Source: Centroscyllium fabricii (lineage: Eukaryota). From it: 64,000 nucleotides of DNA. This document shows, piece after piece, positions 4,201 through 45,202 of this stretch. Position 1 is the first letter of the stretch. Each line of letters begins with the position of its first letter. The position numbers and the translations under genes are program-made. The notes under the pieces were generated by a model that saw only the letters and a list, made by a program, of their open reading frames with translations, ran no database searches and was not told the origin of the DNA. The stretch spans positions 496,434,001 to 496,498,000 of the forward strand of contig JBNRSN020000001.1 of NCBI GenBank assembly GCA_051313645.2, in the 5' to 3' direction.

Positions 4201-5223
4201 CTTCTTGCCACATTTCTCTCAGGTCGCGGTCCTCACGGGGCATTTCACTCGCGGCTGCTGTCCCTGGGCGCAGAAGTAACATTTTCTGTCAGACGGCGTC
4301 TTCACAGCTGCCGCTGCCATTGTGGGGTTCTCGACCTGTCGTGGGGCCACCCAGGGATCGAGGGTGTCTTGTGGGCCTTGGCCTCTATACGCCTCTTGCC
4401 TGTGGCGTGCTCCATCCACTGCGTTAGAGATGGAGATCGCCTCCTCCAGTGATAAAGTCTCTTTTTCCAGCAACCGCTGGCGGGCCTGGCTGGACCTGAT
4501 TCCCGTCACGTAGGCGTCTCGAACGAGGAGATTCGTCTCCTCCTGCGCCGTTCGTGGCTGGCAGTCACAGGCCCGGGCGAGGGCTTGAAGCGCCAACAGA
4601 TACTGTTCGTTCGACTCACCGAGCCGCTGTTGTCTGGTCGCCAGCACGTGTCTGGCATAGACCGAGTGGACCGGGCGCATGTAGCATGCCTTCAGTTTCT
4701 CCACGGCCTCTGGGTACGTTGTGATGCCGCGAATGAAGGAGTACACCCGGCTGGTGATCCTGGACGAGAGGACGTGTAGTTTGTCCCCGTCGGTCGTCGC
4801 CTTGGCGGCCGCCATGTAGGCCTCAACAAGGCTGAACCAATGTTCAAACGTGTTGGCGGCGTCTGGTTCCTGTGGATTAATATCCAGCTTTTCGGGTTTC
4901 ACAGCGCCACCCTCCATTTCGAAAAATTAAGTGATTAAAATTGACGTATCGTCAATAAGACAAAGATGAGTAGTTACCTTAACTATAGACTTTTAATCAC
5001 TTAAAGATGGAGCTAGTCTCCAGTCGAACATAGAGTACAGAATGAATGGGGGCAGGTCAGACCTCACCTATAAGGCTCTCACCTGAGGGGAGGAGTTAGA
5101 GGTGTGGCTGACCTGACCTTGCGACAGTGTTCTTGTACAATACTATATACAGTGCACCCAGCCACTATACATGCTGGTCAGTGGTGTAACCCAACTATAT
5201 ACAATGGTAATATGATTACCACA
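1275..5223 (-). mobile_element. Gypsy element A (3'-truncated): 5' LTR 4942-5223, gag 4219-4917, PR, RT, RNase H, integrase; inserted in element B
   Basis: LTR TGTGGTAA...CGTCA. Gag with CYFC knuckle, LFDTGS protease, YLDNV RT, ESDASD RNase H, HHCC remnant and DDE integrase. Frameshifted, and fused to the CR1 fragment at ~1274. Confidence 0.95.
3630..3950 (-). repeat. 45-bp tandem repeat in the gag-protease linker of element A (PAPPSCLQRPAMCDS units)
   Basis: CAAGATGG cores at 3633, 3678, 3723, 3768 and 3813 (period 45). Confidence 0.9.
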
Positions 5224-8200
5224 GGTAGTGAACCAGCACATCCGCCGACAGCATCAGTTTCTTGGACTGTTCAAATGAAACCCCCTGCTCCTCTCCCCAC
5301 TGCCACTGTGTCTCCTTGCGCAGTAGTTTGTGAAGAGGTGCTAACACTGTTGACAAATTTGGCAAAAACCTGTTATAATAGTTCAGCAGTCCCAGGTAGG
5401 CCTTTAACTCAGTCACATTTGTAGGATCAGGGGCTTCCTGGAGTGCTTGTACTTTCTCCTTGATTGGGTGGAGCCCGGTGGTATCAACTCTGTGTCCCAA
5501 GAACACTGCCTCCTTCCCCGGGAAGGTGCATTTACTCCTCTTGAGCCGTAACCCTGCATTCTCCAATCTCTGTACTACCTCTCTGAGTGCTCAGATGCTC
5601 CTGGTCAGTTTTTCCCATCACCAGAATGTCATCCAGATAGATAGAAACATGTGGGATCCCTTGCAGTACACCTTCGATTGCCCTCTGGAAGATAGCTGGA
5701 CTAGATGAGACACCAAACGGTAAGCGGTTATATGTAAACAAGCCCTTATGGGTATTTATGGTAACATACTTCTTCGATTCGTCATCCAGTGTAATCTGCA
5801 AATATGCATGACTCAAATCCAACTTCGGGAATTTCTTTCCTCCGGCCAGGTTTGAAAAGAGATCCTCTGTTTTAGGAATTGGATACTGCTCTAGTTTGGA
5901 CACCCGATTGACTGTCAATTTATAATCTCCACAGAGCCTTACTGAATTATCCAGTTTGAGAACAGGTACTATGGGAGCTGCCCATTCTGAACATTTCACT
6001 GGTTCCAGTATGTTCTCTCTCAATAGACGGTCAAGTTCAACCTCTACTTTTGGTTTCATGGCATAAGGCACAGGTCGTTGTTTAAAAAACCTTGGCAGTG
6101 CCTCCTTGTCTGCATAAATCTTAGCTGGGGGGGGCCCTTAAATGTGCCCAGTTGCTCCTTGAACACATTCTCATGTTCACTCAACACTTCTTGCAAGGTC
6201 AACTGTTTGCCTTCATCTATTTGATTTACTGCTCCCCAGTTCAATTTAAGATCTTTTATCCAGCCCCGACCTAACAGGTTTGGTCCGGTACCCGATACTA
6301 TAACTACAGGTAGCTGTTCCACCGTGTCCCTGTGTTGCATCGTTACATTAGCTATTCCAAATGTTGCTACATGTTCACCTGTGTATGTTTTAAGACGCGG
6401 AGAGCAAGACTTTAACTCTGGAATTTTTGTACCGTTACCCAATTTTGAGTACTCTGCCCTGTTCATTACGGTTACCCCACATCCTGTATCAACTTCAAAG
6501 TTCACCTTAGTGTCATTTACTCTCAGTTGCAATTTGATAGGAGCCACTTTTGGGATGTTCTCATTGTCTGCACTGTAGAGATACTATGATTCTATGATTG
6601 TGAACATGTCCTCTTCTTCCTCAGCCTCCCCGCTGATGTGGTGTGCTCCATGTTTTTTCACTTCTCCTCTTAGGTTTTTCTCCACAGGTGATTTTGCCCT
6701 ACATGCTCGTTTTATGTGTCCTTGTTTCCCACACTTGTGGCACTTTTCCTCCCGAAACCTGCATTCACTCGCTAGGTGATCGCCCTTGCTTCTATAACAT
6801 GCCTTTACACGCTCCCATTGTGGTTTCTGACGCATGTTTAACTTGTGCACAATAACCGGACATGTTACTGGCTTAGCTTTAGCCCTGTCTGAACCCTGTA
6901 TTTCTTTTACATCTCGGTTCGTTGTCTCTAAGGCATGAGCAAGTTCCAATGTTTTTTCATATGTAAGCCCAGTCTTGGACAATAATCTACGCTGTATTCG
7001 GTCGTCTATTATACCGCAGACTAGCCTATCTCTCAGCATTTCCTTCAGGTTGTTTCAATAATTGCAATCTTGTGCTAATTTGCACAATGCTGCGACAAAT
7101 GCCATTACACTCTGATGTAATAATAGAGTCTGATACATCAATAACTTAAAGCAAAGCTTTAATCGACTACATTATCACTATGTACAAAGACGGGTTTTAC
7201 CATGCTTCCAGGTGAAGTGTTCCCCCATACTGAGCAGTTCCAGTATTTATACTAATAGAAAACAGGAAGTGACATGTACAGAGTTCACCCCTTAGCCTTC
7301 CCCGGAAGTCTGTTCAATATTACCACATTCTTCCCTCCTGAAAAATTAAAAGGCGGGAATCTTCTTTTTATTCCGGAGTAGCCGAACAAGGAGGAGACGT
7401 ACCCGTTTGAGTTCTCGTTGCTGGGTTGATGGTCCGTCCCTATGGACAATGTCTGGGTCTCTGGACCGTTTACCTGCTGTTGGCCACGGGTCAGAACCTG
7501 CGTGGCCTGGATTACCCTGTGAAGCGTTGGATTGTTCACCCACTAATAGCGTACGAGCTCCAATAGGTGCAGAGCTGGTTTGTCCCTGGTCAGGGGAAGG
7601 CACAGAGCTGGTCTGCGGCCAATTGGCACTTTGGCGTGAGGCACCGGGAGGATCATGACTCCATGTACGAGCCCCCCACAGGCTCACAGTCGGTTGGTGT
7701 CTGGTCAGTGTCCTGGAAAGAGGTACTTGGCGGGTCGTAACATTGAGTGTGAGATTTGACTGGCGCAAAGCTAGTTGGTGTCAGATCCGGGTCCTGGAGA
7801 GTGGTACCCGGTGGGTCCCTGGAGGCCCCTGGTAGGATATTATCCCTTGGCATCCCTCTAGGTCCTGGTGGGCAAGATGCCAGGTCCCGCAATGATACGG
7901 TAGACTCTCGACCGTCGGGATATCGTATGTAGGCATTGGTAGGGTTGGCATCAGTTAGTTCGACCTCATCTACGAGAGGGTCATTTTTAGATGTCCGAAC
8001 GTATCTTCGGAGCAGTACGGGTCCCGGAGTAGTTAGCCATGATGGAATAGATGCCCCATAAGATGAGCGACGCTGGAATCCAAAGAACCGTTCATGAGGT
8101 GTAGTATTTGTGGCTGTAGACAGAAGGGACCGTATAGAGTGTAATGAATCCGGAAGCACTGCTTCCCATTGCTGGATTGGTAGGCTCTGAGATTTTAAAG

Positions 8201-11200
8201 CAAGCCGTACGGAATTCCAGATGATTCCGTTATATCTCTCTACCTGTCCATTCCCGATGGGATGGGATGGCGTCGTTTTGCTTGTCGCAATTCCCCGTTC
8301 TGAGAGGTAGTCCTTCAGTTTGCTTGACATAAAAGATGGACCCCGATCCGAGTGAATGTAGGCCGCCATGCCACAAAGAGAAAATACTTGCTTAAGGCAG
8401 TTGATTACAGTGGATGCCAGCATATTGGAGCAGGGGAAGGCAAACGGAAATCGTGAATATTCATCGATCATTGTGAGCAAACATGTGTTCCGTGTTGAAG
8501 AGGGCAATGGACCCTTGAAGTCGACGCTAAGCCGTTGCATCGGTTGGGTTGCGTGTATGAGCGCACCATCTGGGGGGCGGAAGAACTGAGGTTTCAATTC
8601 TGCACAAGTTCGGCATTCGGAGCACATTTCCTTTATATCTCCAGTAGAAAATGGGAGATTCCATGATCGCACGAAATGTAGCATGCGAGTCACGCCAGAA
8701 TGACACAATCCATCATGGATGTCTATGAGAGTAGACGATGACATAGCAGAGTAGAATGCTCATGTGAGGGTATCCGGGGCCACATTCTCTTTGCCAGGTC
8801 GATAGTGAATGGTGTAACCAAAAGAGGCCAATTCCATCCTCCAAAGCTGTATTTTATTGTTCTTAATTTTAGTTCGCTTTCGATTATCGACCATGAAGGC
8901 GACTGGTCGCTGCTCCGTGATTAATGTAAAGTGCCGGCGAGCTAGGAAATGGTTCCACTTCTGTACTGCCTCTATGATGGCTGTGGCTTCCTTCTCAACC
9001 GGAGGATAATGTATCTCGGCACCTTGTAAGGTCCTAGACATGAATGCTACAGGCCGGCCTTCTTGATTTAGAGTAGCTGAGATCGCCACCTCTGAGGCAT
9101 CACATTCGACTACGAAAGGGAGGTCCTCATTGATGGAGTGAAGAGTTGCTTCTTCCAACTGTTTCTTGAGAAGGTTAAAGGCTGCAACAGCCACTGTTCC
9201 CAACGGAAATGTTCCAGCATTCAGCAAGGGCTGAATTTTATCTGAAAAATTCGGAATCCATTTAGCGTAGTATGCAAACAGACCGAGGGCCCGACGTAAA
9301 GAAGCCGGATTGTTAGGGGGAGGGAGCTCCTGGAGCGGGTGAAGTCTTTCCGGGTCTGGTTTAATGATACCGTTGCCTACGCAGTAGCCAAGAATGTTGA
9401 TGGTCGGTTGCGACTCCACAGATTTGGATTCATTTAAAGTTAAGTTATGGTGCTGGAGAGCATCCCGAAATCTTTGGAGGTTGGCATCATGTTCCTGCTG
9501 GTCGTGGCCTGCAACAGTAATGTTATCAAAAGGTAGGGAAAAGTATCCCCTAAGTTTTCCTGCTCAACGAGGCCATCCATTGCCCGTTGGAAGACAGCCA
9601 CTCCATTAGTGACCCCGAGTGGGAGGCGACGAAATTGATACAGCCATCCATTAGCCTCAAAGGCCGCGTATTTCTTATCTGAGACCCGTAGGGGTACCTG
9701 ATGATAGGCACTCTTTAAATCATAGGTTGAGAACACTTTGTATTCAGCCAGTTTATTAAGCATGTCATCAATGCGTGGCAATGGGTAGGCGTCCAGGTCA
9801 GTATATTGATTGACGGTTTGAGAGTAATCAATGCATAGTCGTTTTTTGTGAGGTTTTAGAGGGTTCTTAACGATGACGATTTCAGCCCACCAGGGCGATG
9901 AACATGGTTCGATGATGTCCTCTGCTAAAATACGAGAGATTTCTGTCTCAATGAAAGACTGATCTTCCTGACTGAAGCGTCGAGATTTGGTTATTATTGG
10001 TTTGCTTTGAGGAGGAATACTGGCGAATAATGAGGGTTCACCAAGTGAGGCTGCTGACAGTGCACAAAATGGTGATTTAGACGGTATATTAGAAATAGTA
10101 AGTCCAGGTTTGGATCCGTCGAACTCAATGATGAGTTTTTTATGCTGTTTTTGAAAATCCAGCCCTAGGATAAGATCACTACATAAGTCCTTGAGCACTG
10201 AGAGTCGAGTGGAGGGATACATGCAGCCATTAAGTGTCATGTCAATAATACAAAAGCCGGAGATTCTGGTATTAAGTGATGACTGAACCATTGCAATTGC
10301 CTGGTCCGATGGGAAGACATGTAGTTTCAATTTCTCAACAATCTGTTTTCTAATGAAACTATCAGTACTTCCTGAGTCAATTAAGGCATCAAAGGTATGC
10401 CCATTAATCGAGACTTTTGTGGCTGCATGAAATAAATTTTGAGGGCAGGCAGCTGTAATTGGTGTGGTTGCACAGAGCGAGGCTGTAATTCTAGGTGTGT
10501 TTCTTCGGGAGGGAGCTCGATAGGTCCTAGCTGGAGCATCTTGATAGGCCCTAATTGGGGCAGCTCGGTAGGCCTTAGCTTGATAGGCCCTCATAGAGGC
10601 TTTTGATTGGCAAACTTTTGCAAAGTGTCCTTTTTTACTGCAATGATTGCAGATTGCATTGCGAGCAGGGCAGAATTTCCTAGGGTGGAAAGAGTCTCCA
10701 CAAAAGAAGCATTTCTTCCTAGATTGCCAAGAGGCTGCTAAAGTGGGGTCATCCTCCTCCTCATCACTAAACTCATCAGGACTAGATATGATAGACCATC
10801 AGGATAGACCATGATAGGGTCCACCTGAGGCCCGTGAATGGTCTGATTGCAGTTGCAGCAGCAGTTCGAGATCTGGGCAGCTGATAGAAGTCTGATTTTT
10901 TTTTTGCCAAGTCCAGAGCACAAGCCAGGTCAAAAGCCTTTGATAGCTCAAGCGTTTTTCTCTCTAGCAGACGCTGCCGTATAAATGGAGAGGCAATCCC
11001 GCAGATGAAAGCATCTCGAATAATTTCTTCGCGGTACACCTCAGCCGAGGCTGCCTTAACATTACAATCTACACTGAGCCTGCGAAGTTCTTGAAGGAAC
11101 TCCTGAATCGATTGCCCTAGCCTTTGGTGGGCCGTGGACAGTAAATGTCTAGCATAGACCTCGTTTGGGGCCTTGGTATATAGTTCTTTCAGTGCTTGGA

Positions 11201-12291
11201 TTACCTCACTATAGTTATCCCATTTATCAACATATTCATATACGTTTGGGGACACATAATTCACAAGTAATCGTAGTTTGGTAGAGGCATTCTCACAACA
11301 TTCTTCAAGAAAATTCTCAAAAGTATGGCACCAATGCTTCCATACCTTGGCAGCTGCTGGTGCATTTGGGTCCAGATCCAGGCGAGTCGGTTTGAGGAGG
11401 CTTTCCATGATGGGTTGGTCCCTGGATCCTCAGTTCCGTGCTGTCCAAAAGTTTTAAGGATTTTGAGCGTGAAGTTTTTAGTGGATTAAATTGATGTACT
11501 AATAGAGTCTGATACATCAATAACTTAAAGCAAAATCCACTACATTATCACTATGTACAAAGACAGGTTTTACCATGCTTCCAGGTGAAGCGTTCCCCCA
11601 TACTGAGCAGTTCCAGTATTTATACTAATAGAAAACAGGAAGTGACATGTACAGAGTTCACCCCTTAGCCTTCCCCTGGAAGTCTGTTCAATATTACCAC
11701 ACACTCTCTTCCTCTTTCCTGTGCCTCGAATTAAACTTGTACCGTTGTACAATTTCACTCGGTTTAGGGTTGAAATGTTCTTTTAATAAGGCCACTAATT
11801 CAACCATTGATTTGTCACCAGGCTTTTCAGGACTGAGAAGATTCTTCAGCAAACGATAGGTCTGGCTTCCTACAGAACTCAATAGAATTGCTTTCCTTTT
11901 TCCAGCATCGTTTATTTAATTTGCCTCAAAGAAATAACCCAACACTTCACAGTATTCCTCCCAGCTTTGAGCTTGCATATCAAAAGTGGAGACCGTTCCT
12001 ACCTTGGTAGCCATGCTCACGTCCAAATTGCAGCAACTTTAGCTCGTGAGTTTGTTATATTTTTTTCTTTTCCAAAAAGTCCTGTTCGACTTTTTTTTCT
12101 TCTTCTGGGTTCTTTGTTTTTATCTCGTCGTCAATGTGGTAGCTCTCACTGCGAAAGCAGGACTCGAAGAGGCATTAGAATAGTAACAAAACAAGAGAGA
12201 TTATTCTGTGTCCCGCCCTTTTATACCCTTTGATCCTCAGCCAGTATACAATAGCTGCAGCACCACCTAGTGGACAACCCCAATCATAACA
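5224..12291 (-). mobile_element. Gypsy element B (Mag/K02A2.6-like), decayed; interrupted by C and cut at its 3' side by A; 5' LTR ~12135-12291
   Basis: Gag split between 11702-12015 and 6584-7112 (CCHC knuckle CHKCGKQGHIKRAC). Protease VDTGC at 6056-6547; RT YLDD at 5532-6071. PBS TGACGACGAG resembles TGGCGACGAG (tRNA-Ser type). Confidence 0.9.
7113..11701 (-). mobile_element. Full-length Gypsy element C nested in the gag of B; LTRs 7113-7327 and 11492-11701
   Basis: Paired LTRs and 5-bp TSD CACTC (7108-7112 / 11702-11706). Gag 10782-11408, PR-RT 9440-10594 (IDSGS), RNase H 8760-9419, integrase 7653-8744. PPT GGGAGGGGAAGAA-like. Confidence 0.95.
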
Positions 12292-12563
12292 CCCCAGGTT
12301 ACTAGACGAATGTTCAGGCTGCAGGTGTGGACAGTATTCAGGCCAAATCTGTACAGATGAGGTGAGGGGAGCAGTTGTGTTGTTGGAGAATAGTGATGAA
12401 AACAACCTTCTTGGCTTGAAACTGGTGAATAGAATTCTATTTGAGACTAACATGCCTAGTGGTATTCTAAATCATAGTTGTGGTTCCTGTTCACATAGGG
12501 GCCTCATTAAGCCTGAAAACTACTGAGGAATCTCACCAAGAGCAGTAGATCTTTATATAGTGT

Positions 12564-15500
12564 TGTAGAGGCATGCAGGGCCGAAGAACCACACTGGACA
12601 CAGATGAGTCGGAAAGTTATCATTTAATGTTACTACAGCTAGGGCCAGGTGGAAAAGAGAGTGAGCCACCTGGAGCCCAGGTATTTAAAGGTCCCGCGGT
12701 AGGTGACGTCACTGCCGGGTCTCCACCCGGCGACGTCATCACGCCGGAAGTCGCGGTGATGTCAGCACGCCGCCCGGTGGGCGGGACTGTCTTGCAGCGC
12801 TCCCGATGCGGGTTCGATGTTGCTGGTGGGCGTGTCGCCACACAGCTCCCCCCCAGAATCCGTGAGGGAGAGCGAGGCTAGACCTAGAGGAGAAGGAGAC
12901 ATAAAGGAGAGCAAACACAAATTTTCGAGTATAACATAGAATGTCCGGCGGTTTGCCGAGGTGGCCTGATGGTGTGGCCCGCACGTGTCGTGCGCTGTTC
13001 CATGTTCCGAAATGCGATGTTGAGGCGGGCTGATGATGTAGCCTGCACGTGTCGTCTCAGGCGAGGCGCTGAGGTGGCCTGATGATGCGGCCAGCACGTG
13101 TCATGCACTGCTCCTTGTTCTGCGTAGGAGTGTGGGCGGGGTTTGGTGCGGTAGGGCGTCCGCGCTTTGGTGGCTGTGCGGGGACTGTTGTCTTGCCCGC
13201 CATTACGTGTGCCGGTTTGAGCCGGACAATTGAGACAGTCTCAGCTCTACTGCCCATTTTAATTTGAAAAGTTTTGGGTCCCGCCCGAAGCACTCTGAAT
13301 GGTCCGTCGTACGGTGGTTGTAGTGGTGTTCGATGTGCGTCGTGGCGGACAAACACATACTTGGCATTTTGGATGCCGTCTGGAACACGTGCTGCCGGCT
13401 CTCCGTGCCGGGCCACCGGAAGTGGTTTGAATGCAGCTGCCTGATTGTTAAAGTCTTTGAGGCAGCGCTCGGCTGACCAGGGTTCGTTGGTTTCTGCCAC
13501 GAACTCGCCCGGTACAGTTAGTGGTTGGCCATAGACCAGTTCAGCTGCTGAGGCGTGCAGGTCTTCCTTGGCCGCTGAACGTAGACCGAGCATTACCCAG
13601 GTCAGGCGGTCGGTCCAGGTTGCGTCTTGGAGGCTGGCCCGCAAGGAAGCTTTGAAGGATCGGTGGAACCGTTTGCAGAGGCCGTTGGCCTGAGGGTGGT
13701 AGGCGGTGGTTCGGTGCAGGGTTGCCCCGAGGTCGTGGGCAATGGTTGCCCATAGGGTTGAGGTAAATTGGGGGCCCCTGTCTGATGTGATGTCGGTGGG
13801 GACGCCAAAGCGGGCGACCCAGGTGGCAATGAAGGCCCTGGCCAGGTCGGCGGTGAGGGGGACCGCTTCTGGCCAGCGGGTGCTGCGGTCGACCATTGTT
13901 AGGATGTGTGAATGTCCCCGTGATGGTGGTAGTGGTCCGACCAGGTCGATGTGTACATGGCTGAAGCGTCTAGCTGGGATGGCGATGGTTTCGAGCGGTG
14001 CCTTGATGTGCTTGTGCACCTTGGCGCCCTGGCAGGCATTGCACGAGTTGGTCCAGGCGCGGACATCTTTGCGCAGGCCGCGCCAAACGAATCGCGCAGA
14101 GATGAGTTTGGTGGATGCACGGACACCGGGGTGGGACAGGTCATGGAGGGTCTGGAAGATGTGTCGCCTCCATGTGTGGGGGACGACGGGTCTGGGCTGA
14201 GGGAGGGAGACGTCGCAGCGGACCGCTGTGGCTGTGGGCCCGTGTGCTACGGTGGCCAAGAGCAGGCCGGGGAGGTTGGTGGCAGGGTCGAGCAGGTCAG
14301 GGTCGGTTAGTTGGTCGGCCGCCATTTTGGTATAGTCGACGGCCGTTTGGACAGAGTTGATGGTGGGGCGTGAGAGGCAGTGCGCGCAGACGCTGTCGGT
14401 GGTGGGGTGTGAGGGGCAGTCAGCGACCACGTTGTCGATGGTGGGGCGTGGGGGGCAGTCGGCGACCGCTTTGTCGATGGTGGGGCGTGAGAGGCAGTCA
14501 GCGACCACGTTGTCGCGGCCGGCGATGTGCTGGATGTCGGTCGTGAATTCTGACACAGCCGCGAGCTGGCGCTGCTGCCTGGCCGACCAGGGTTCAGAGA
14601 TCTTAGCCATTGCGGACACGAGTGGCTTGTGATCCACGAAGGCTGTGAAGTGGCGGCCCTCTAAGAGGAAGCGGAAGTGGTGCACCGCGAGGTAGAGAGC
14701 GAGTAGCTCCCTATCGAAGGTGCTGTACTTGACCTCCGGGGGCCGGAGTTGTCGGCTGAAAAAGGCCAGGGGCTGCCAGGAGTCGCCCGTCCACTGCTCA
14801 AAGACTGCTCCGACAGCGTGGTCCGAGGCGTCGGTGGTGAGGGCTACTCTGGCGTTGGGCCTAGGGTGGCTGAGGAGAGTGGCGTTGGCCAGGGCCGTTT
14901 TGGTTGCGGTAAAGGCGGTGGAGGCTTCGGCCGTCCACTCGACCGCAGCCTTGTTGGACTGCCCGCGGGTGGCGTGGTACAGGGGGGCCATGAGAGCGGC
15001 TGCTCCCGGGATGAAACTGTTGTAGAAATTAACCATCCCAAGGAATTCCTGCAGCCCCTTGATGGAGTGCGGGCGGGGGAATTCCTGGACCGCCTGCACC
15101 TTGGACGGCAGGGTTATGGCCCCGGTCTGGGAGATGTGGTGGCCGAGGAAGTCGATCGTCTCGAGGCCGAATCGACATTTGGAGGGGCTTAATATCAGGC
15201 CGTGTTCAGCCAGACGGTTGAAAAGGGCCCTGAGATGGACGAGGTGTTCCTGGGGGGAGGCGCTGGCCACGAGGATGTCGTCGAGATAGACGAACGTGAA
15301 CTGCAAGTCCCGTAGGACCGAGTCCATGAGGCGCTGGAAGGCCTGGGCCGCGTTTTTGAGTCCGAAGGGCATTCGGAGAAATTCGAACAGGCCGAATGGG
15401 GTAATGACGGCTGTCTTAGGGACGTCCGCCGGGTGCACCGGTACCTGGTGGTAGCCCCGTACCAGGTCGATCTTAGAAAAGACCGTGCAGCCGGCTAGCC

Positions 15501-17361
15501 TTGCTGAGAAATCTTGGATGTGGGGAACGGGGTACCTGTCTGGGGTGGTGGCGTTGTTGAGGCGGCGGTAGTCTCCGCAGGGGCGCCAGCCGCCGCCGGG
15601 TTTGGGGGCAATGTGGAGGGGGGAGGCCCAGGGGCTGCTGGAGCGGCGGATTATGCCGAGTTGTTCCATGATGTGGAATTCGGCGCGCGCGATCTCCAGC
15701 TTGACTGGGTCCAGCCTGCGTGCGTGGGCATGGACTGGGGGGCCTGTGGTGGTGATGTGGTGCTCCACCCCGTGCTTGGCCGTGCGGGCTGTGAAGGTGG
15801 GGTTGGTGAGGGCTGGGAACTCCGCGAGCAACGTGGCGTACGTGTCGGAGTTCCGGCTTCGGCAGTGGGCCGCTGCATGGGCCTGGTGTGCCGGCCTTGT
15901 GGAGCATGGGATGGTCGACATGTTGTGGATGTCGACCAGGCGGCGTCGGGTAACGTCGACCAGGAGGCCGTGGGCGCACAGAAAGTCGGCCCCGAGTAGG
16001 GCTATTTTAACTTAGGCTGTGATAAAGTCCCACGTGTACGTGTGGCCTGCCAGCTTGATGGTAAGCTGGCGGGTGCCGAACGTAACTATCTCGGAGCCGT
16101 TTGCGGCTTCGAGTGGTGGGCCTTGGGTGCCTTGCTTGGTTTCTGCGGGGGAGGCTGGCACGATGCTGTGCTGCGCGCCTGTGTCGCAGAGGAAGCGGAG
16201 GCCTGAGCAACTGTCTGTAACGAAGAGCAGTGCTCCGGAGCGGCCTACGGACATGGTGGTGCCTGGGCTGGTTTGGGGTTTGAAGGTGCAGGGCTGGACG
16301 CAGCGCTGCGCTTTGGCTTCGAACCTGGTGTGGTAGTAGCACCAGCCTGGGCCCGTAGTGCGTGGTTTTTTGTGGGTCCGCACCGCTCTGGCTTGGGGCC
16401 TGTGCCCGGGCCTGGGGTGCGCGTAGTACTGCTCCGGTGGAGCGGCAACGTTACGGTGCATGGTGGCGCGGGTGCGCTCGGCCTTTATCAGCTTGTCTGC
16501 CTCCTGAGCTAGTTGTTTGCCCGAGTAGTGCTCCAGGACCGTCAGAGCCGGTCTGACGGAGGGGGGCAGTTTAAGGAGGTACAAGGCGCGCTTGAGAGTG
16601 GCCGGATCTGGGTTAAGCGCTTCGAATTGGGCCCACAGGTCGGTGGGGTCTGCGTCACCCAGGTCGGGGAGGTTAATGACCTGGCAGTCGCGCTCAAAAA
16701 TGGTGGGGGTAAATTTTTGGAGCAGCGCGGCCTTAAGCGTTTCATACCTGCCAGCAGTTGGTTCTTGCTCGATGGAGTCCCACATTCGGTCGATTGTGGG
16801 CTGCGCAAGGGCTGCGAAGAGCAGGCTGTAGCGATCGTCCCCCTGCACGCCATAGATGCGGAAGGTGTTCTCAGTGTTGAGGAACCAGGCCGCTGGACGG
16901 AGTTCCCAGAACTCAGGTAGGTTTGGAATTTGGCCGAAGTGCTGGCCCCGTCTTTGGTGGCGTGCTGTTTCGATCCCTGCTGGCATGGTGGTTGCGATTC
17001 AACTGAGGCAGCTTGGCCCTCAGTCCTGCAGCGACTGCTTCATTGTTCTCTTGGAATTCGTCCCAAGTATCGAGGTCACCACTGTAGAGGCATGCAGGGC
17101 CGAAGAACCACACTGGACACAGATGAGCCGGAAAGTTATCATTTAATGTTACTACAGCTAGGGCCAGGTGGAAAAGAGAGTGAGCCACCTGGAGCCCAGG
17201 TATTTAAAGGTCCCGCGGTAGGTGACGTCACTGCCGGGTCTCCACCCGGCGACGTCATCACGCCGGAAGTCGCGGTGACGTCAGCACGCCGCCCGGTGGG
17301 CGGGACCGTCTTGCAGCGCTCCCGATGCGGGTTCAATGTTGCTGGTGGGCGTGTCGCCACA
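12564..17361 (-). mobile_element. Full-length CsRn1-clade Gypsy element G; LTRs 12564-12842 and 17083-17361
   Basis: 279-bp LTRs with 4 differences seen and 4-bp TSD GTGT. PBS TGGTGACCTCGA (tRNA-Trp type). Gag CHCC motif CYYHTRFEAKAQRCVQPC; G-rich PPT. Confidence 0.95.
13057..16986 (-). pseudogene. gag-pol of element G: one reading frame broken by a single TAA at 16012-16014
   Basis: ORFs 16012-16986 and 13057-15921 are in the same frame. Motifs DTGA, YLDD, TTDAS and DRG present; the third integrase catalytic residue reads K (NGLCKRF versus NGLCERF in H). Confidence 0.9.
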
Positions 17362-27774: not shown

Positions 27775-27829
27775 GATGAGTGGCACAGCCAGATGAGGTT
27801 GGGCGTGGATTTGCAGTAACATTTTGTGA

Positions 27830-28025: not shown

Positions 28026-28097
28026 AGAACAACTGTCAAAATGAATGGCCATGGTCCTTTTAAGGAAATCGGATGATGACGGGTCATCAAATGACAC

Positions 28098-33688: not shown

Positions 33689-36600
33689 TGTGGTAAGCAT
33701 GTATTTTACCACTTGTATATAGTACCTGTATACCTGTAAATATCTGTCGGCTGGGACAGCCCCACCCCTAACTCCTCCCCTCAGGTTGGAGTACATAGGT
33801 GGTTGCTGACCAGCCCCCACTCATTCTTCGCCTTGACCTCACCAGGAGACCAGCTCCATTCTTAGTTAATAAAAGCCTGTAGTTTAGGTAACTACTCGTA
33901 TTTGTGTATTAATTGACGATACGTCAATTTTGTTAACTAAATTTTGAACATGGAGAGCAACGCAGTGAAACCGGACCGCCTTGACATCAATCCTCAGGCG
34001 CCCGATGCTGCAAATAATTTCGAACACTGGTTTGGCTATGTCGAGGCCTACATGAAGGCCGTGAAAGTGACCAGCGATGAGGACAAACTCCAGGTACTCT
34101 GATCGAGGATCAGCGGCCGGGTGTATTCCTTCATCCGAGGCATCAAGACTTATAAAGTAGTAGCCAAGAAGCTGAAGGACAGCTACATGCATAATGATCT
34201 ACACTCGGAACTCGGTTTACGCCAGGCACATACTGGCGACCAGAAGACAACGACTGGGTGAGTCGAATGAGGAGCTCCTGTTAGCGCTCCAAACCCTCGT
34301 ACGGGCCTGCGACTGCCAGGCAACGACAGCAGAAGAAGGGGCAAATCTCCGAGTCCACGATGCGTACGTTGCAGGACTCGGGTCCAGCCAGGCCTGACAA
34401 CGGCTGCTGGAGCAAGAGACACTGTCGCTCAAGTCTGCCATAACGCTCTCAAATGCGGTAGACGGGGCGCTTAAACGGATGGACGCGTACAGGGAACACA
34501 ACTCCCACGCAAGCCCACCTAACCTCTGGGCGCCACAGGCACAGGCCGAAGACCCAACGGCAGCAGCGGCTGCTGCGAAAACGCCGGCGGGGCCCAGATG
34601 CTACTTCTGCGGCCAGGGAAAACACCCGCGGGCGCTATGCCCTGTGAAGAACGCGACCTGCGTGCAGTGTGCAAAGATGGGACACTACGTGAAAGCCTGC
34701 AGATCCAGCCCGGCCTCCAGGCCCAACAGCGCGGCCTGTGATATCAGCGATGCCACTCCGTGGCCACAGGTACGGTGCTGCAGCATGACCCATCAGCGGT
34801 CAGCCGGGGGCAAATCGCGGGCGCCACCATCCCTCCTAAAATAACGGCGGCAGCCGGCCGTGCGCGCGGCACAGGCGCCGCCATCTCCAGCGCGACCGCG
34901 CCCAGCCATGTGCGACCCCCCAGTGCCGCCATCTTGCCCACAGCGGTCAGCTGCGTGCGAACCACGGGCGCCGCCATCTTGCCCACAGCGGTCGGCCGCG
35001 TGCAAACCACGGGCGCCGCCATCTTGCCCACAGCGGTCAGCCGTGTGTGAACCACGGGCGCCACAACATCAGCCGGACACATGCGAAACGCCAGCGCCGC
35101 CATCTGCCGAGCGGCCATCTTGCCAACCGCCCCGGCCGGGGCCCCAGCTAGCGGAGGGCCCCCACACACACACACACAACATCGGCCACAGCCACTGTCG
35201 ATCAGGCCAGGCTGCACACATTGTCCAACTCAATGATGGGGATAAAGGTGGAGGGGCATGCCACTAACTGCCTGTTTGACACCGGTAGCACAGAGAGCTT
35301 CATTCACCCCAACACAGTGCGGCGCTACGCACTGCAGACCCAGCCCACGTACTACCAAATCTCCCTCACCTCAAAGTCCCACAAGGCGGACATCAACGGC
35401 TACTGCAGCGTCACGCTCACCATCAGGGACCGCACTTACCGTAATTTTAAGCTGTACGTTCTCCCACAGCTGTGCGCCCCAGTATTACTGGGACTGGATT
35501 TCCAGTGTCACCTGAAGAGCGTGACGATGGCTTTCGGTGGGTCCCTGGCCCCTCTCACCGTCAGTAGCCGGGACGATTCCAACCTACCACGGAGCTCGGC
35601 TTGCGGCCTGTCCACACTGAAAGTCGACCCCCCCTCACTGTTCGCCAACCTCGACCCCAAGTGCAAACCCATTGCAACCAAAAGTCGGCGGTACAGTGCA
35701 GGGGACCAGGCGTTTATCAGGTCAGAAGTCGACCACCTGCTGAAGGAAGGGATCATTGAGGCCAGCACCAGCCCCTGGCGAGCCCAGGTCGTAGTGGTTA
35801 AGACATGCGAGAAGCTGTGCATGGTCATCGACTATAGCCAGACCATTAACGGCTACACCGGGCTCGACGCCTACCCACTCCCCCACATCTCAGATATGGT
35901 GAACCAGATCGCCCAATAGAAGGTCTTTTCTACAATCGACCTCAAGTCGGCGTATCACCAGCTCCCCATCCGGAACTCCGACCACCAGTACACCGCATTC
36001 GAGGCGAACGGCCGGCTCTACCACTTCCTCCAGGTCCCCTTCGGCGTGACCAACGGAATGTCAGTGTTCCAAAGGGAGATGGACCAGATGGTTGACCAGA
36101 ATGAGTTGCAGGCCACTTTCCCTTACCTGGACAATGTGACCATCTGCGGCCACGACCAGCAGGACCACGATGCCAACCTCGCCAAATTCCTGCACACGGC
36201 GAAACGGCTGGACTTAACGTACAATAAAGACAAGTGTGTCTTTAGTACGGACCAGCTCGCCATCCTCGGCTACGTAGTGGAAAACGGGGTCCTCGGCCCC
36301 GATCCCCAGCGTATGCGTCCCCAGCAAGAGCTGCCCTTACCTCACAACCTCAAAGCCCTGAAGAGATGTCTAGGGTTTTATTCTTTTAACGCACGTTCCC
36401 CAGTATGCGGATAAGGCCAGACCTCTCCTCAAGTCCAAAGCCTTCCCCCTACCGGCAGAGGCCCAAACGGCATTCGCTCGGATCAAGGAAGACATCATCA
36501 AGGCGACCATGCACGCCGTTGATGAGTCCATCCCTTTCCAGGTGGAAAGCGACGCTTCGGACTTCGCCCTCGCTGCCACGCTTAACCAGGCGGGCATGCC

Positions 36601-38297
36601 CGTAGCGTTCTTCTCCCGGACCCTACAGGGACCCGAAATTCGCCACTCCGCAGTGGAAAAGGAGGCCCAGGCCATTGTGGAGGCAGTGTGTTACTGGCGC
36701 CACTATCTGGCCGGTAAGCATTTTACCCTGCTCACCGACCAACGGTCGGTGGCGTTCATGTTTAACACTAAACAACAGGGTAAAATCAGGAATAATAAGA
36801 TCCTTCGGTGGCGGATCGAGCTCTCGACTTACGAGTACGACATTCTTTACCGGCCAGGCAAGCTCAACGAGCCCCCGGACGCCCTGTCCAGGGGAACATG
36901 CACCAGCGCCCAGCTTGACCGGCTGCAGGCCCTCCACGATCGCCTCTGCCACCCGGGTGTCACCAGACTCGCCCACTTTGTCAAATCCCGTAGCCTCCCT
37001 ACTCCATTTCGGAGATCAAGGCTATGACTAAAGAGTGCCCTGTCTGCGCTGAATGCAAACCCCAATTTTACAGGCCAGACAGGGCGCACCTCATCAAGGC
37101 CACCCGCCCCTTTGAATGCCTGAGCATGGACTTCAAAGGTCCCCTCCCCTCCACTGACCGCAACTTGTATTTCCTCACGGTCATCGACAAGTTCTCCCGC
37201 TTCCCCTTTGCCTTCCCCTGCCCAGATATGACGAGCGCAACAGTGATCAAACACTTCACCACGCTGTTCGCCATTTTCGGTCTCCCCAGCTACATCCACA
37301 GCGACCGGGGGTCGTCGTTCATGAGCGACGAACTGCGTCAGTTTCTGCTCCACAAGGGGATTGCCTTGAGCAGAACGACCAGTTACAACCCCCGGGGGAA
37401 CGGTCAGGTAGAAAAGGAGAACAGGTCTATCTGGAAGGCGGTCACCCTGGCCCTGAAATCCAGAGGCCTTCCAGTCTCCCTTTGGCAGGAGGTCCTCCCA
37501 GACGCGCTCCAATCCATCCGCTCTCTGGTGTGTACCGCTACAAATGCCACACCTCATGATCTATTGTTTTCCTTCCCCAGGAAATCGACTTCGGAGACAG
37601 CACTCCCGCTGTGGCTGACTGCGCAGTGGCCAGTCTTGCTTAGGAAGCACGTCCGCGGCCACAAGACGGACCCCCTGGTGGAACGGGTGCACCTGCTCCA
37701 TGCCAACCCGCAATATGCTTACGTTGGCGTGGAGCAGGTGCACCCGTTCCACCAGGGACCTGGCGCCCGCCGGGACCACAATAACGGGACCCCCGGTCGA
37801 GCCTCAGCTCGACCAGCCAACACCCACCGAATGCTGGCCCCCATACGCACACACACCGGGGCCCTCAACTCCACCGGACGACGCTACCACTATCGGCGGA
37901 GAGCACGACCCCGACCCCGCAACCGGCACCACCGTCACCGACGCCCCGGCGGGGTCTCAGGCAGACACGACCGCCGGAGAGACTGATTGCTCAATGTTAA
38001 CGGACTGTATCTGTTGATGCATGTTCACCCCGCCGGACTCATTTTAAAGAAGGGGTGAATGTGGTAAGCATGTATTTTACCACTTGTATATAGTGCCTGT
38101 ATACCTGTAAATATCTGTCGGCTGGGACAGCCCCACCCCTAACTCATCCCCTCAGGTCGGAGTACATAGGTGGTTGCTGACCAGCCCCCACTCATTCTTC
38201 GCCTTGACCTCACCAGGAGACCAGCTCCATTCTTAGTTAATAAAAGCCTGTAGTTTAGGTAACTACTCGTCTTTGTGTATTAATTGACGATACGTCA
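33689..38297 (+). mobile_element. Full-length Gypsy element D (relative of A); LTRs 33689-33926 and 38060-38297
   Basis: 238-bp LTRs with 4 differences seen; TSD GCATA/CCATA. Gag ATG at 33950, LFDTGS, YLDNV, RNase H and integrase 37024+, PPT AAGAAGGGGTGAA. Inserted in an old CR1 RT remnant. Confidence 0.95.
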
Positions 38298-39634: not shown

Positions 39635-39803
39635 CATAGAATCATAGAATCACTACAGTGCAGATAGAGGCCATTTCGGCCCATCAAGCCTGCACTGACA
39701 CATATCCCACCCTATCCCCGTAACCCCACATATTTAATCCCCCTAACACTAAGGGTCAATTTATCCTGGCCAATCAACCTAACCCGCATGTCTTTGGACT
39801 GTG
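39635..39803 (-). mobile_element. 5'-truncated HE1-type SINE
   Basis: Reverse complement of the 27520-27620 region plus a (CATAGAAT)2 tail. Confidence 0.8.
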
Positions 39804-40649
39804 TCTGCAATCCCAGTATCCATCTCCTCTGCAAGAAATGAGACAAAGTTCTTATTTAGTATCTCTACCATTCCCTCATTCTCCATTGCAAGTTTGCCTC
39901 CTTTATCTCCTAGCATGACGACCACAACCTTGATAATCTTTTTACTACTAATGTGCCTACAAAAAACATTTTTGTTGCTCTTTCACTCTCTCCCGCTTAG
40001 CCTTTCTTCGTACTTAGTGAGGGCCTGTTAAAGGTGCTATATAAATGCAAGTTGTTATTGTATGCAGTAGGTATAATGAATGTATGTTTTACAAAAACAG
40101 AAGTACACTGATTAACTATTGGGAAAGGCACAGTTCTGTATTTTATGGGTGTGATTGGTCATTTGAAATAAAAATCAGGAAGAAAATCATATGTGAAGTA
40201 CAACCTGGATTTCCTGGTGCAGGCTGTTCAATTTTTAGGTAGTAATCAGCTGACTGGGTGCAGAAAATGTGTGGCAGTCCTAACCCTCTGTTTACTTGTA
40301 CCCCCTAGTTTACAATGGTCAGCGATGAAAGCACCAACCTCAAACAGACAGTTGTTTCATTTAAATATTAATTTGAGGGGTATTTTTCCTGCATGTCGTT
40401 TCCTGCCATTCTGATGTGCAGAATGTCGATATGTTAATCACATTCTTGGGACATGAGTGTTTAAGGTTGCTGGGTGGTGGTACTTATAATGGCAGACACA
40501 ATAATATTCAGGTAAGTGTATTTTTCCTGCTGGCACTTAGGTTCTCAGAACTGTTATGGCAAATGTTGTACATTATTTATTTTTTCTCCCCATTACAATT
40601 AGTGGTACTGATGGAAATCCCCCTCTCAGATTTGTTTGGAAGAAGAGGG

Positions 40650-43600
40650 TGATGCGCGATCAATTATACTTGAGGCGAGGTTGAGAATACAACTGAGGCT
40701 TTTATTCACTAAGAACCCTGGAGATCCTTAGACTGACCGGCAACTCCTTGTACTGGGCCAGGCTCCCAGAGCTCGGACCTTTATCAGGTAGGCTAGGGGT
40801 AGAGTCAGCTTCAGGCATGCCCGGGCATGTAAACACACAGGCAAATATATACAACAGTGGTTTACCACATTCACCCCTTCTTTAAAAATGAGTCCAGCAG
40901 GGTGAAGTGAGACAAAGTCAAGTGTACATGAGTCTTTCAGGAGGTCTGGTACGCCTCTGTGATTGTCGTGGCTGCGGTGCTGGTTCCACGTCTTCGTCCG
41001 CACGGGGGTGGTCGGTGACGTATCGTCAATAAGACAAAGACGAGTAGTTACCTTAACTAGAGGCTTTTAATCACTTTACGATGGAGCTACTCTCCAGTCA
41101 AACATTGAGTACAGAATGAATGGGGGCAGGTCAGACCTCACCTATAAGGCGCTCACCTGAGGGGAGGAGTTAGAGGTGTGGCTGACCTGACCTCGCGACA
41201 GTGTCGTTATACAAAACTATATACAATGCACCCATCCACTATACATGCTGGTCTGTAGTGTGCTCAACTATATACACTGGTAATCATGATTACCACAGTC
41301 GGCGGCTGGGTCCTTGGATCCGGCGCGTAGTGTAAAGGGGCTAGGGGAGAAAGATCAGACGCAGACGCCTCCCGGGGGGTGGTGGGTTGCAAAAGGTGGG
41401 GGTGGCAGGGTTCGGCAGCATCGGGGGCACCCGAGGGGGGGAGGTCCCTAATAGAAACGGTGTCCTCCCGCCCGTCCGGATACGCAATGTAGGCGTATTG
41501 GGGGTTTGCATGGAGGAGTTGGACTCTTTCGACGAGGGTGTCAGTCTTATGGCTCCTGATGTGTTTCCGGAGCAAGACGACTCCTGGGGACGTCAGCCAA
41601 GATGGGAGCGAAGTCCCCGATGTGGACTTCCTGGGGAAGACAAACATTTTTTCATGAGGGGTGGCGTTTAGGGCAGTGCAGAGAAGGGACCGGATAGCGC
41701 GGAGTGCATCCGGGAGAACGTCTTGCCAGCGCGAGACTGGAAGGCCCCTGGACTTTAGGGCTAGCAGGGTGGCCATCCAGACTGTAGCGTTCTCCCTCTC
41801 CACCTGTCCGTTCCCCCGGGGGTTGTAGCTGGTAGTCCTGCTCGTGGCGACGACTCTAGCGAGCAGGTACTGTCGCAGCTCGTCGCTCATAAATGAGGAA
41901 CCCCGGTCGCTATGGATGTAGCTGGGGAACCCGAACAGGGCGAAGAGATTGTGCAGGGCCTTGATGACCGTGGCCGAGGTCATGTCAGGGCAGGGAACGG
42001 CGAAGGGGAAACGTGAGTACTCATCAATAATGGTGAGAAAGTACACATTGCGGTCGGGGGAGGGGAGGGGTCCCTTGAAATCGATGCTGAGGCGCTCGAA
42101 GGGACGGGTGGCCTTGATCAGTTGTGCCCTGTCTGGCCTGTAAAAGTGCGGTTTGCACTCAGCGCAGACCTGGCAGTCCCTGGTCATGGTCCTGACCTCC
42201 TCAATGGAGTAGTGCAGGTTGCGGGCCTTGACAAAATTGAAGAACCGGGTGACAGAGGTCGTTGTGGAGGGAGCGCAGTCGATCCACCTGCACGCTGGCG
42301 CATGTTCCCCGGGAAAGGGCGTCTGGGGGATCGTTGAGCTTCCCGGGGCGGAACAAGATATTGTAGTGGTAGGTGGAGAGTTCAATTCTCCACCTCAATA
42401 GCTTGTCATTTTTGATTTTACCCCGCTGCTTGTTGCTGAACATAAAAGCAACTGAGCGCTGGTCAGTGAGCAGGGTAAACCGTTGACCGGCAAAGTAATG
42501 CCTCCAGTGGCGCACAGCTTCCACTATGGCCTGGGCCTCCTTCTCGACAGAGGAGTGTCTAGTCTCGGGGCCTTGGAGGGTTCGGGAGAAGGAGGCCACG
42601 GGTCTGCCCGCCTGGTTATGGGTGGCGACCAGGGCAAAGTCGGACGCATCGCTCTCCACCTGAAATGGGGCGGTTTCGTCCACCGCGTGCATGGTGGCCT
42701 TAGCGATGTCCCGTTTGATGCAGTCGAAGGCCATACGGGCCTCCGTCGTCAGGGGAAAGAAAGTGGACTTAAGGAGCGGGCGGGCCTTGTCCGCAAAGTT
42801 AGGGACCCACTGGGCGTAGTAGGAGAAGAAGCCCAGGCATCTTCGCAGGGCCTTTTGGCAATGGGGGAGGGGGAGTTCCATGAGGGGGCGCATGCGGTCT
42901 GGGTCGGGACCGATGACCCCGTTTTCCACGACACAGCCAAGAATGGCAAGGCGTGTTGTGCGGAACATGCATTTCTCCTTGTTATAAGTGAGATTAAGGA
43001 GTTGGGCCGTGCGAAGGAATTTTTCCAGGTTGGCATCATGGTCCTGCAGGTCATTGCCGCAAATGGTCACGTTGTCGATGTATGGGAACGTGGCCAGCAG
43101 CCCAAGCTGGTCAACCATATGGTCCATCTCCCGTTGGAAAACCGAGACGCCATTGGTGACCCCGAAGGGGACCCTGAGGAAGTTGTAGAGGCGGCCGTTA
43201 GCCTCGAAGGCAGTATAGCGGCGGTCCGCAGGGAGGATGGGGAGTTGGTGATAAGCCGATTTCAGGTCAATGGTGGAAAACACCTTGTACTGCGCAATCT
43301 GATTGACCATGTCAGATATGCGGGGGAGGGGGTACGCGTCCAACTGCGTAAAGCGGTTCATGGTCTGGCTGTAGTCGATAACTAATCGGTTCTTTTCACT
43401 GGTCTTAACAACGACTACTTGGGCCCTCCAGGGGCTGGTGCTAGCCTCAATCACCCCCTCCTTCAGGAGCCGCTGTACCTCGGACTTGATGAAAGCCCTG
43501 TCCCCAGCACTGTATCTCCTGCTCTTAGTGGCTATGGGTTTACAGTCTGGGGTGAGGTTAGCGAACAGTGGGGGAGGGGCGACCTTGAGGGTCGAGAGGC

Positions 43601-45202
43601 TGCAGACGGCGCGCGATGGGCGGTTGGAGGGCTTCTGGCTGCGGACAGTGAGGGGCGGGAAGGGGCCCCCCGTACGCCATCATAACGCTATTAAAGTGGG
43701 TTTGCAAGTCTAACCCCAGGAGGACGGCCGCGCACAGGTTGGGTAGGACCAGGAGTTTGAAATCCTTGTACATTGCGCCGCTCACCGACAGGGTTACCAC
43801 GCAGTAACCGCCGACATCCGCGGTCTGGAATTTGGAAGCGAGGGAGATGTGCTGGTGCATGGGCCGAGTGGAGAGCGAGAGGCGGTGCACCGTATCGGGG
43901 TGGATAAAGCTTGCCGTGCTCCCCAAGTGAAACAGGCAGTTCGTGGCGCAGCCGTTTACCTTAATGTCCATCATCGACTTTGTGAGGTGGTGGGGCCCAG
44001 ACTGGTCCAAGGTAACGGAAGCCAGTACCGCGGCTGGTGGCTCATCGCAGTCAGTCGGGGAGCCGGGTCGGTCTGTGGCTGCAGGCTTCCAAGATGGCTG
44101 CTCCCATGAGTCGCACATGGTGGGGGTTGTCCAAGATGGCCGCAAGGTCGGTTCGCACGCGGCGCTGCTGGGCCTGGGGGACGACTTGCAGACGCTCGCA
44201 TAGTGTTCCTTCTTCTGGCAACGCGTGCAAGTAGCGTCCTTCGCCAGACAGAGCTGCCTGGAGTGCTTCACTCGGCCGCAGAAATAGCACTTCTGACTCC
44301 GGGGTACCGCCGCGGTGGTCGGGCCGTTCACGGAGCGAGGCGAAGGTGGCGCGGCGTAAGGCATCAGGCCTGGCGTGTTCCACGCTGGCGGCTCCCGTGA
44401 GGTCCATGGGGCGGCCATGTGCGCGTACGACTCCATACTCCGATCAGCCCCTTCGAGTGCGAGTCCGATGTGTGTGGCCTTCTTCAGGGACAGTTTCCCC
44501 AGTTCCAGCAGTCTCTTCCAGGTGTAGTCCGATTGTACGCCTGCGACGATGGCGTCTCGGACTAGCAGCTCCCTGTGCTCATCTGCTGAAGCCGTTTTGC
44601 AGTTGCAGGCTCTGCTGAGCTCCATCAGGGCCCGCACAAAGCCAGCGAAACTCTGCCCGGGCCGTTGTTTGCGGGTCAGCAGGAGGTGCCTGGCGTAAAC
44701 TGTGTTAGTCGGCCGCTCGTACTGCTCCTTGAGGAGGGCCATCGCCGATGTGTAGGAGGTCATTCCCTTGATGAGTTGGAACACTCGGTGATGGAGCCGT
44801 GACTGCAGAAGCAAGAGTTTCTGGGCATCCGTCTGGACAGTGCTGGTGGAGGTCGCCAGGAATCCCTCAAAGCAGGTTAGCCAGTGGGAGAAGCTGCTCG
44901 GCGCCTCTGGTGCGCTCGGGTCGAGTTCCAGGATGGATAGCTTTAGGAGGGCGTCCATCTCAAAACTCTTAGTGAATAAAATTGATGCGCGATCAATTAT
45001 ACTCGAGGTGAGGTTGAGAATACAACTGAGGCTTTTATTCACTAAGAACCCTGGACATCCTTAGACTGACCGGCAACTCCTTGTACTGGGCCAGGCTCCC
45101 AGAGCTCGGGCCTTTATCAGGTAGGCTAGGGGCGGGATCAGCTTTAGGCATGCCCGAGCATGTATACACACAGGCAAATATATACAACAGTGGTTTACCA
45201 CA
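40650..45202 (-). mobile_element. Full-length Gypsy element E; LTRs 40650-40869 and 44983-45202
   Basis: 220-bp LTRs. Gag-PR 43558-44958, RT/RNase H 42201-43454 (YIDNV), integrase 41300-42385, PPT AAGAAGGGGTGAA. Confidence 0.95.
41016..41297 (-). mobile_element. Solo LTR of family A inserted in the integrase tail of E
   Basis: 282 bp, similar to 4942-5223, with a perfect 5-bp TSD GTCGG (41011-41015 / 41298-41302). Confidence 0.95.

Follow-up and report, generated by a model that had tools for sequence, protein, structure and literature searches.

A 64,000-nucleotide (nt) stretch of the Centroscyllium fabricii genome (contig JBNRSN020000001.1, positions 496,434,001 to 496,498,000; "the window") raises the question of how several of its Ty3/Gypsy retrotransposons start reverse transcription. 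A sequence-only reading had proposed that four families, A, C, D and E, carry in place of a tRNA-type primer-binding site (PBS) a segment complementary to their own long terminal repeat (LTR), and that this pairing primes the element. We found the four LTR-PBS pairs where that reading had placed them, with matches at 14/14 (A), 15/15 (E), 12/13 (D) and 11/12 (C, scored against the 3' LTR) positions. The PBSs lack TGG, and their sequence varies by family while the complementarity is kept. We consider it highly probable that these elements self-prime in cis from the 5' leader of their RNA, whatever the length of the primer. Lineage-wide covariation gives the self-priming proposal good support, as do fossils of reverse transcription that start exactly at the 3' terminus of the LTR segment, here called the arm.

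Pairing of the LTR arm with the primer-binding site

The stems of A (14 base pairs, bp), E (15 bp) and a second copy of C (L131, intact at 12/12) were each reached by 0 of 60 dinucleotide shuffles. The D copy in the window has only 8 perfect bp owing to its mismatch, and 9/60 shuffles matched it. The segment TTTTATTAAC is present in all 14 other D copies retrieved, and the window copy has a G there, so that the mismatch is private. Because these D copies and L131 are intact, the imperfections seen in the window are copy-specific. The layout was also kept in all 29 other A copies retrieved, with scattered single substitutions. A fifth case, A', was absent from the first reading; on the PBS side of its 5' LTR lies a 27-nt perfect reverse complement. 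That reading had further offered B, G and H as controls with tRNA-type PBSs. B and G, presumably CsRn1-like from their motifs, do have TGG-type sites, and their 6-bp LTR-PBS stems are at chance level (reached by 57/60 and 42/60 shuffles, respectively). H, presumably Mag-like on the same grounds, has a degenerate PBS.

An alignment of 51 relatives led to 93 loci, 13 from genome bins and 80 from metagenomes. Of these, 39 had a plus-strand Gag start and 38 were tested for the stem. Thirty of the 38 cross-genome loci had a mismatch-free stem of 12 bp or more, in each case reached by 0/60 shuffles. The misses comprised five copies with mismatched stems and three stemless loci (L053, L098 and L119). 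Covariation, suggested earlier as a check, proved extensive and lineage-wide over 26 family representatives (21 foreign, five from this genome). At stem positions 1-12, 309 of 312 pairs were Watson-Crick, two were G-U and one was a mismatch, as counted on hand-picked intact copies that excluded the three stemless loci and with the register set for best pairing. Up to four pair types occurred at a single position. The near absence of G-U suggests that the PBS is copied from the arm, since a stem kept in the RNA purely by selection would be expected to tolerate such pairs. Compensatory variants at 4933/4998 and 4935/4996 were found in public contigs, and the near-identical loci L051 and L052 differ by one compensatory pair. 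Arm and PBS alleles were linked in all 28 parsed A' copies (of 30), which may reflect a single inherited change.

The PBS begins CA-N-TTT in all 26 representatives, the arm ends in TAAA or TAAAA in 25 of them, and the loop measures 21-68 nt. In a set of 28 representatives, 16 have an RCCT...AGGY mini-hairpin after the arm, and splice acceptors upstream of the arm were not enriched (4 observed, 3.5 expected). Three side observations concern single loci or sets of contigs. L328 has a PBS lengthened to 22 nt that joins Gag again at its ATG context, a possible route for leader-length remodelling. In L061 the sequence that follows the PBS repeats, in direct orientation, an LTR segment lying upstream. 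Contigs L031-L043 place eukaryotic Gypsy elements inside bacterial genome bins, probably through host contamination.

Predicted start site and fossils of reverse transcription

We propose the following cycle. The 12-16-nt arm ending in TAAA(A) pairs perfectly, at the DNA level, with the PBS 1 nt past the CA of the LTR. Transcription in A, D and E would start 52-57 nt upstream of the arm end, leaving the arm internal to the leader. The leader would then be cut at ...UAAA(A)^RCCU, a site suggested by junction fossils, most likely by the RNase H of the element as in Tf1. The resulting capped 5' fragment of about 55 nt, its 3' end paired, would prime minus-strand DNA. Minus strong-stop DNA would measure 20-70 nt and would be transferred via the short part of R that separates the cut from the poly(A) site. 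The plus strand would copy the 3' 12-16 nt of the primer, regenerating the PBS from the arm in every cycle; such regeneration would make covariation automatic and G-U pairs nearly absent. Where it copied a longer part of the primer, the plus strand would either jump to internal sequence (read-through) or fold back on its own LTR (palindromes); products of both kinds are seen.

Priming by a capped 52-57-nt leader fragment that is released by a cut at UAAA(A)^RCCU strikes us as rather likely. The element has an RNase H domain, and by analogy with Tf1 this enzyme is probably the cutter. The conserved context of the cut would also suit cleavage by the RNA itself or by a host nuclease, which we consider improbable. 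The accessible text on Tf1 places the RNase H cut between bases 11 and 12 (PMC7175516). In the present lineage the length of the primer may vary while the cut site stays fixed.

The start sites were predicted from TATA-like and initiator (Inr) motifs 30 nt apart, and their distance from the arm end would be 53 or 57 nt in A, 52 nt in D and 55 nt in E. The predictions for A and D preceded the fossil searches, and that for E was made afterwards by the same rule.

The first fossil was the A' copy in the window, in which 27 nt of LTR complement past the LTR are followed by a microhomology jump into the nucleocapsid region. Exact patterns of such extended PBSs matched this genome 39 times for A, 50 times for D and 104 times for E, and reversed-pattern controls gave 0 matches. 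The normal E junction had 1597 matches against the 104 extended ones. Allowing one mismatch raised the A count to 124, many of them from other families. The patterns fix the start of the extension at the arm 3' end, 1 nt past the LTR, and the informative features are thus abundance and stop points. Individual examination covered 43 loci for A and 30 each for D and E; three A loci represent one duplicated event, leaving 101 extensions.

According to this tally, 52 of the 101 extensions reach the LTR start or nearly so, and 49 stop earlier, often with a jump to internal sequence. Among 22 complete A palindromes, the 5-bp target-site duplication (TSD) was perfect in 17, had one mismatch in three and two mismatches in one, and the remaining palindrome ran through the polypurine tract (PPT). 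The TSDs mark the palindromes as separate integrase insertions of cDNA, and this in turn shows that the plus strand possesses a free DNA end at the PBS. As mini-insertions, palindromic LTRs of about 516 bp with their own 5-bp TSDs were seen at L201, L205, L206, L208, L212-L214, L216-L220, L222, L224, L227 and other loci.

The partial read-throughs bear on the length of the primer. Forty-two end at or before position +2 of the predicted start and seven end after it; beyond that point the rate for each base at risk is 17.8-fold lower (binomial p = 8e-19 if the events are independent). Taking the A start as 53 shifts one event (41 versus 8). Twelve ends lie within -5 to +2 of the predicted start, and one lies in the next 8 nt. 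In D the ends cluster at 51, 51, 51 and 53. In E they include 53, 54, 55, 55, 55 and 56, and others gather at 31-39, near a second Inr-like site 35 nt from the arm end. At the other side of the predicted cut, in loci whose junction is preceded by nothing but a U5 piece, these pieces start at -1 to +3 of the arm end in 6/24 loci by aligner and 8/24 by eye, against an estimated chance expectation of about one per 5-nt window and with two E loci possibly representing one event. Minus strong-stop DNA would be expected to stop at this point if its template were cut after UAAA(A).

Family C was kept out of the end-point count. Its 60 pattern matches, of which 30 were examined, were rejected as fossils; most of them come from a C subfamily that carries a deletion after the arm and is seen here from the opposite strand. 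This subfamily lacks about 16-21 nt directly after the arm. Deletions of several sizes occur in C LTRs at the predicted cut site (window 11520-11545; L124-L138 and L289-L318), the L124-L138 set having been picked with a query that carried the deletion.

Competing accounts of the primer

Several observations weigh against a capped primer of about 55 nt, and a number of them would suit a Tf1-type arrangement in a separate lineage, in which the RNA starts at the arm, its first 11-16 nt act as primer and the extensions are fold-backs stalled at a U3 hairpin. An Inr-like TTAGT lies at the arm start (A11 in 22 and G10 in 24 of the 26 representatives). In the invertebrate element L073, whose U3 is very short, a TATA lies 35-39 nt upstream of the arm end and about 55 nt of LTR precede that end, an arrangement that fits a Tf1-like 11-nt primer. 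Most invertebrate members are without a clear TATA-Inr pair. In A and D a U3 DNA hairpin has its base 57-60 nt away from the arm end and could stall fold-back near the predicted start position. The fossil end points come from a tabulation by hand, and microhomology makes them less sharp. Mismatches are not in excess in the first 57 nt of full palindromes (1.8% versus 2.5%); matching their own LTR evenly, the palindromes are best read as fold-backs, uninformative on primer length. Partial extensions differ from both own LTRs at 1.4%, compared with a background of 1.8%, and alleles absent from both own LTRs were seen only in L279 and L234, with a usable 3' LTR in 12 of 19 elements. With these even matches and the null allele test, most fossils alone do not prove an RNA source.

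Other observations weigh against the Tf1-type arrangement. In A, D and E the TATA-Inr pairs, spaced by about 30 nt, point to starts 52-57 nt from the arm end; the TATA-like motif lies about 80-86 nt from that end, and there is no TATA some 40 nt from it. The D end points cluster at the Inr, short of the hairpin, and the E end points cluster at both Inr-like sites. Pairing continues upstream of A11, at position 12 in 26/26 and position 13 in 24/26 representatives, and the L279 extension carries, 30-34 nt from the arm end, family alleles missing from both own LTRs. We judge the Tf1-type arrangement unlikely, though a serious contender. The earlier suggestion that the primer is internal to R is supported for A, D and E, where TATA/Inr spacing and the 52-57-nt cut-off of the read-throughs point to it; L073 looks Tf1-like. 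A different source of primer, the 3'-LTR arm at a trimmed RNA 3' end acting on the PBS of a circularised genome, could explain why 4 of the 101 extended copies (L204, L229, L253 and L287) continue beyond the start of the LTR to the PPT and on to 3' internal sequence. These four can also be explained as 3'-LTR fold-backs. With priming by the 3'-LTR arm, minus strong-stop DNA would reach the cap, whereas the U5 pieces pile up at the arm end and not at the predicted start, and a read-through stop at 52-57 nt would be unexpected; we give this route very little credence. We find it equally hard to credit that the stem is regulatory only, hiding either the 5' poly(A) signal or the AUG of Gag, and that an RNA of the host acts as primer. 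The arm contains the poly(A) hexamer in 19 of 28 representatives, and in many members the Gag ATG adjoins the PBS, yet the stem is kept in the nine arms without a hexamer, and in three representatives the hexamer lies in the loop instead. The arm ending in a hexamer, as first described, is thus a feature of many families but not of the lineage, and masking of the poly(A) signal, proposed as a second role of the pairing, is not required; it may be a side benefit, secondary at most. A second helix over the Gag AUG was not general (p < 0.05 in 1/26 representatives, combined p 0.81), and G-U pairs are nearly absent from the LTR-PBS stem. Nor could one host RNA fit PBSs that vary with each LTR, or account for fossils that start exactly at the arm end.

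Relatives, known systems and setting in the window

We placed the elements by quick maximum-likelihood trees of reverse transcriptase (RT) and RNase H, of 43 and 22 rows, from which Tf1 itself was absent. The window families and all stem-bearing relatives formed one clade (SH-aLRT 100), separate from sushi-like, CsRn1-like, Gmr1-like and Mag-like elements; these trees did not resolve the deep branching. A chromodomain (PF00385) was found in 0 of 120 relatives among the matches listed and in 0 of 14 scanned lineage proteins, compared with a Chromo match at 5e-9 in the control L360, and the lineage proteins scanned gave no SH3_Tf2-1 match. This agrees with the first impression that no chromodomain is obvious, and together with the RT trees it supports a lineage separate from Tf1/sushi. 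CsRn1 membership is contradicted by the lack of a TGG-type PBS and by an RT that does not group with B and G, the presumed CsRn1-like elements. As for Gmr1, the domain order is normal here, while L039 has integrase before RT and groups apart. The lineage is not nested in the single presumably Mag-like family tested, H, which it adjoins through a very short branch flagged as a long-branch join; the self-priming Mag-related groups mentioned in the sequence-only reading did not surface in literature searches. Family C groups with the metagenome-derived L072 (75% RT identity over 248 columns) and not with A, D and E, reflecting either a separate entry into the host or an old split.

The RT motif is YLDN in A, A', D and F and YIDN in E; among the 120 relatives listed, 83 have YxDN, 25 have YxDD and 12 were unparsed. 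A YxDN-type change blocks transposition of Ty1. A literature search for the YLDN motif returned no match. The best named protein matches, among those listed, are from cartilaginous fishes, and others are cnidarian, nematode, insect and tunicate. A PDB sequence search gave only distant RTs, Ty3 being the best, Atlas matches were unnamed Gag clusters, and a search of viral contigs yielded no relatives. The lineage may be Cigr-1, a MolGy1-16 clade, Tor2 or another metazoan Gypsy clade, perhaps already named. Cigr-1 resembles it in having LTRs of about 245 bp and a single open reading frame of about 1200 codons. The names Selgy and Ronin were considered and rejected, since in the literature searched they denote elements other than this lineage. 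In its main text, a paper on metazoan Gypsy clades does not mention PBS or tRNA, and its readable supplements gave no sequence for motif comparison (PMC6238403). Full-text literature searches, to which subscription journals, Repbase and GyDB were outside scope, found no report on priming of this lineage; there is a modest chance that a remark on the PBS of this clade has been published.

Self-priming has been described for Tf1/sushi elements, Tcn1 and plant TAR elements, the primer of the Tf1 group lying at the mRNA 5' end or in R (PMC6317226, PMC6934838, PMC3601003, PMC4600332, PMC5006619, PMC5341516, bioRxiv 10.1101/2022.12.06.519325, PMC7175516). As far as the accessible portions of these sources go, its demonstration is confined to Tf1, from which similarity has served to extend it to chromovirus relatives and to a single plant copia group. 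Like Tf1/Tf2, Tj1, Tcn1 and vertebrate sushi elements, as the accessible text describes them, the present lineage has a PBS directly after the 5' LTR that is complementary to an LTR segment and uses no tRNA; cutting of the element's own RNA to make the primer and extra helices around the primer duplex, both described for that group, would be further points of likeness (PMC7175516, PMC4600332, PMC5341516, bioRxiv 10.1101/2022.12.06.519325). It differs in forming a separate RT clade without chromodomain or SH3_Tf2-1, in its 1-nt spacer and in its mostly YxDN motif. Its arm measures 12-16 nt, has TAAA(A) as its last letters and is only 20-70 nt away from the end of the LTR, compared with about 155 nt in three of four sushi-like copies of the same genome, and its predicted primer is about 55 nt long, whereas Tf1 uses the first 11 nt. 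The lineage thus appears to work like Tf1 yet lies outside Tf1/sushi, and its self-priming probably arose separately. The four sushi-like copies (L351, L353, L360 and L362) have an 11-nt arm 30 nt after a TATA, with a chromodomain shown for L360; two self-priming lineages therefore coexist in this genome.

For the plant TAR elements (Houba/Osr-1) of the Ty1/copia superfamily, self-priming has been predicted from LTR-PBS complementarity outside the chromoviruses, and independent origins have accordingly been proposed before; the accessible text on these plant elements describes neither fossil evidence nor an internal primer (PMC6317226). Skipper, with a polypyrimidine PBS, and the hairpin sites of fungal GalEa/biv-TRIM are likewise non-tRNA. 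In the available text, Skipper lacks a complement in its LTR, and the hairpins of GalEa/biv-TRIM lie inside the internal domain, whereas here the partner is in the LTR (PMC5006619, PMC6934838). Whether all parts hold together, namely an undescribed animal-wide Gypsy lineage that self-primes independently of Tf1/sushi from a capped primer of about 55 nt cut inside the leader, re-templates its PBS each cycle and leaves its failures as integrase-inserted palindromes, seems to us evenly balanced.

The host genome measures 7.2 Gb, and the window is a nest of retroelements (Table 1). The elements have the features of Ty3/Gypsy, with TG...CA LTRs, TSD, PPT and the domain order Gag, protease, RT, RNase H and integrase. 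A, A', C, D, E and F have this layout in common, and their Gag begins with a MxxxLKPxRLDLDP-type sequence; F, whose 5' end lies outside the window, was assigned to the lineage by RT only. Positions 1-64000 form a dense, mostly minus-strand nest of LTR elements and long interspersed elements, resembling a cluster of Piwi-interacting RNAs in arrangement. Long imperfect inverted repeats lie at 60580-61196 and 47194-47316. Rfam and ARAGORN scans of the whole window gave no matches.

Table 1. Positions in the window of the elements compared and of their priming features
Feature	Position	Strand	Remarks
Family A 5' LTR	4942..5223	-	TG...CA, 282 bp
A primer arm	4991..5004	-	predicted RNA cut directly 3' of 4991
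A PBS	4927..4940	-	reverse complement of arm; 1 nt (4941) after LTR; Gag ATG next at 4917
A predicted promoter	5043..5072	-	TATA-like 5067-5072; Inr A 5043 or 5047 (53 or 57 nt from arm end)
A loop	4942..4990	-	degenerate RCCT...AGGT mini-hairpin after predicted cut site; U5-terminal hairpin
A gag-pol, broken	1242..4926	-	Pfam matches to RT, RNase H and integrase; RT motif YLDN; no chromodomain match
Family C element	7113..11701	-	LTRs 7113-7327 and 11492-11701; 5-bp TSD
C PBS	11479..11490	-	
C arm, 3' LTR copy	7158..7169	-	5' LTR with small deletion at predicted cut site
Family D element	33689..38297	+	LTRs 33689-33926 and 38060-38297
D arm	33862..33874	+	predicted Inr A 33823 (52 nt from arm end); TATA-like at 33794
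D PBS	33928..33940	+	one copy-specific mismatch
Family E element	40650..45202	-	A-type solo LTR inserted at 41016-41297 (5-bp TSD)
E arm	45033..45047	-	predicted Inr A 45087 (55 nt from arm end); second Inr-like site at 35 nt
E PBS	44967..44981	-	
A' element	55699..59973	-	5' part of gag deleted; 5' LTR 59692-59973
A' read-through fossil	59664..59690	-	27-nt perfect reverse complement of LTR 59741-59767
Control B, presumed CsRn1-like	12564..17361	-	TGG-type PBS; no LTR-PBS stem
Control G, presumed CsRn1-like	28098..33223	-	TGG-type PBS; no LTR-PBS stem
H, read as Mag-like element	LTR about 12137-12330		degenerate PBS, TGA for TGG

If the proposed cycle is correct, the lineage would be a large second case of self-priming in animals, bearing on whether tRNA priming or self-priming is the ancestral state and on the escape of elements from control by tRNA fragments. 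An internal cut would free priming from an exact start site and, in many families, would also leave the template without its 5' poly(A) signal. Hairpin RNA could arise from the palindromic LTR insertions. More generally, failed integrations map the 3' end, length and cut site of a primer from the genome alone, an approach usable on other elements that have no recognisable PBS.

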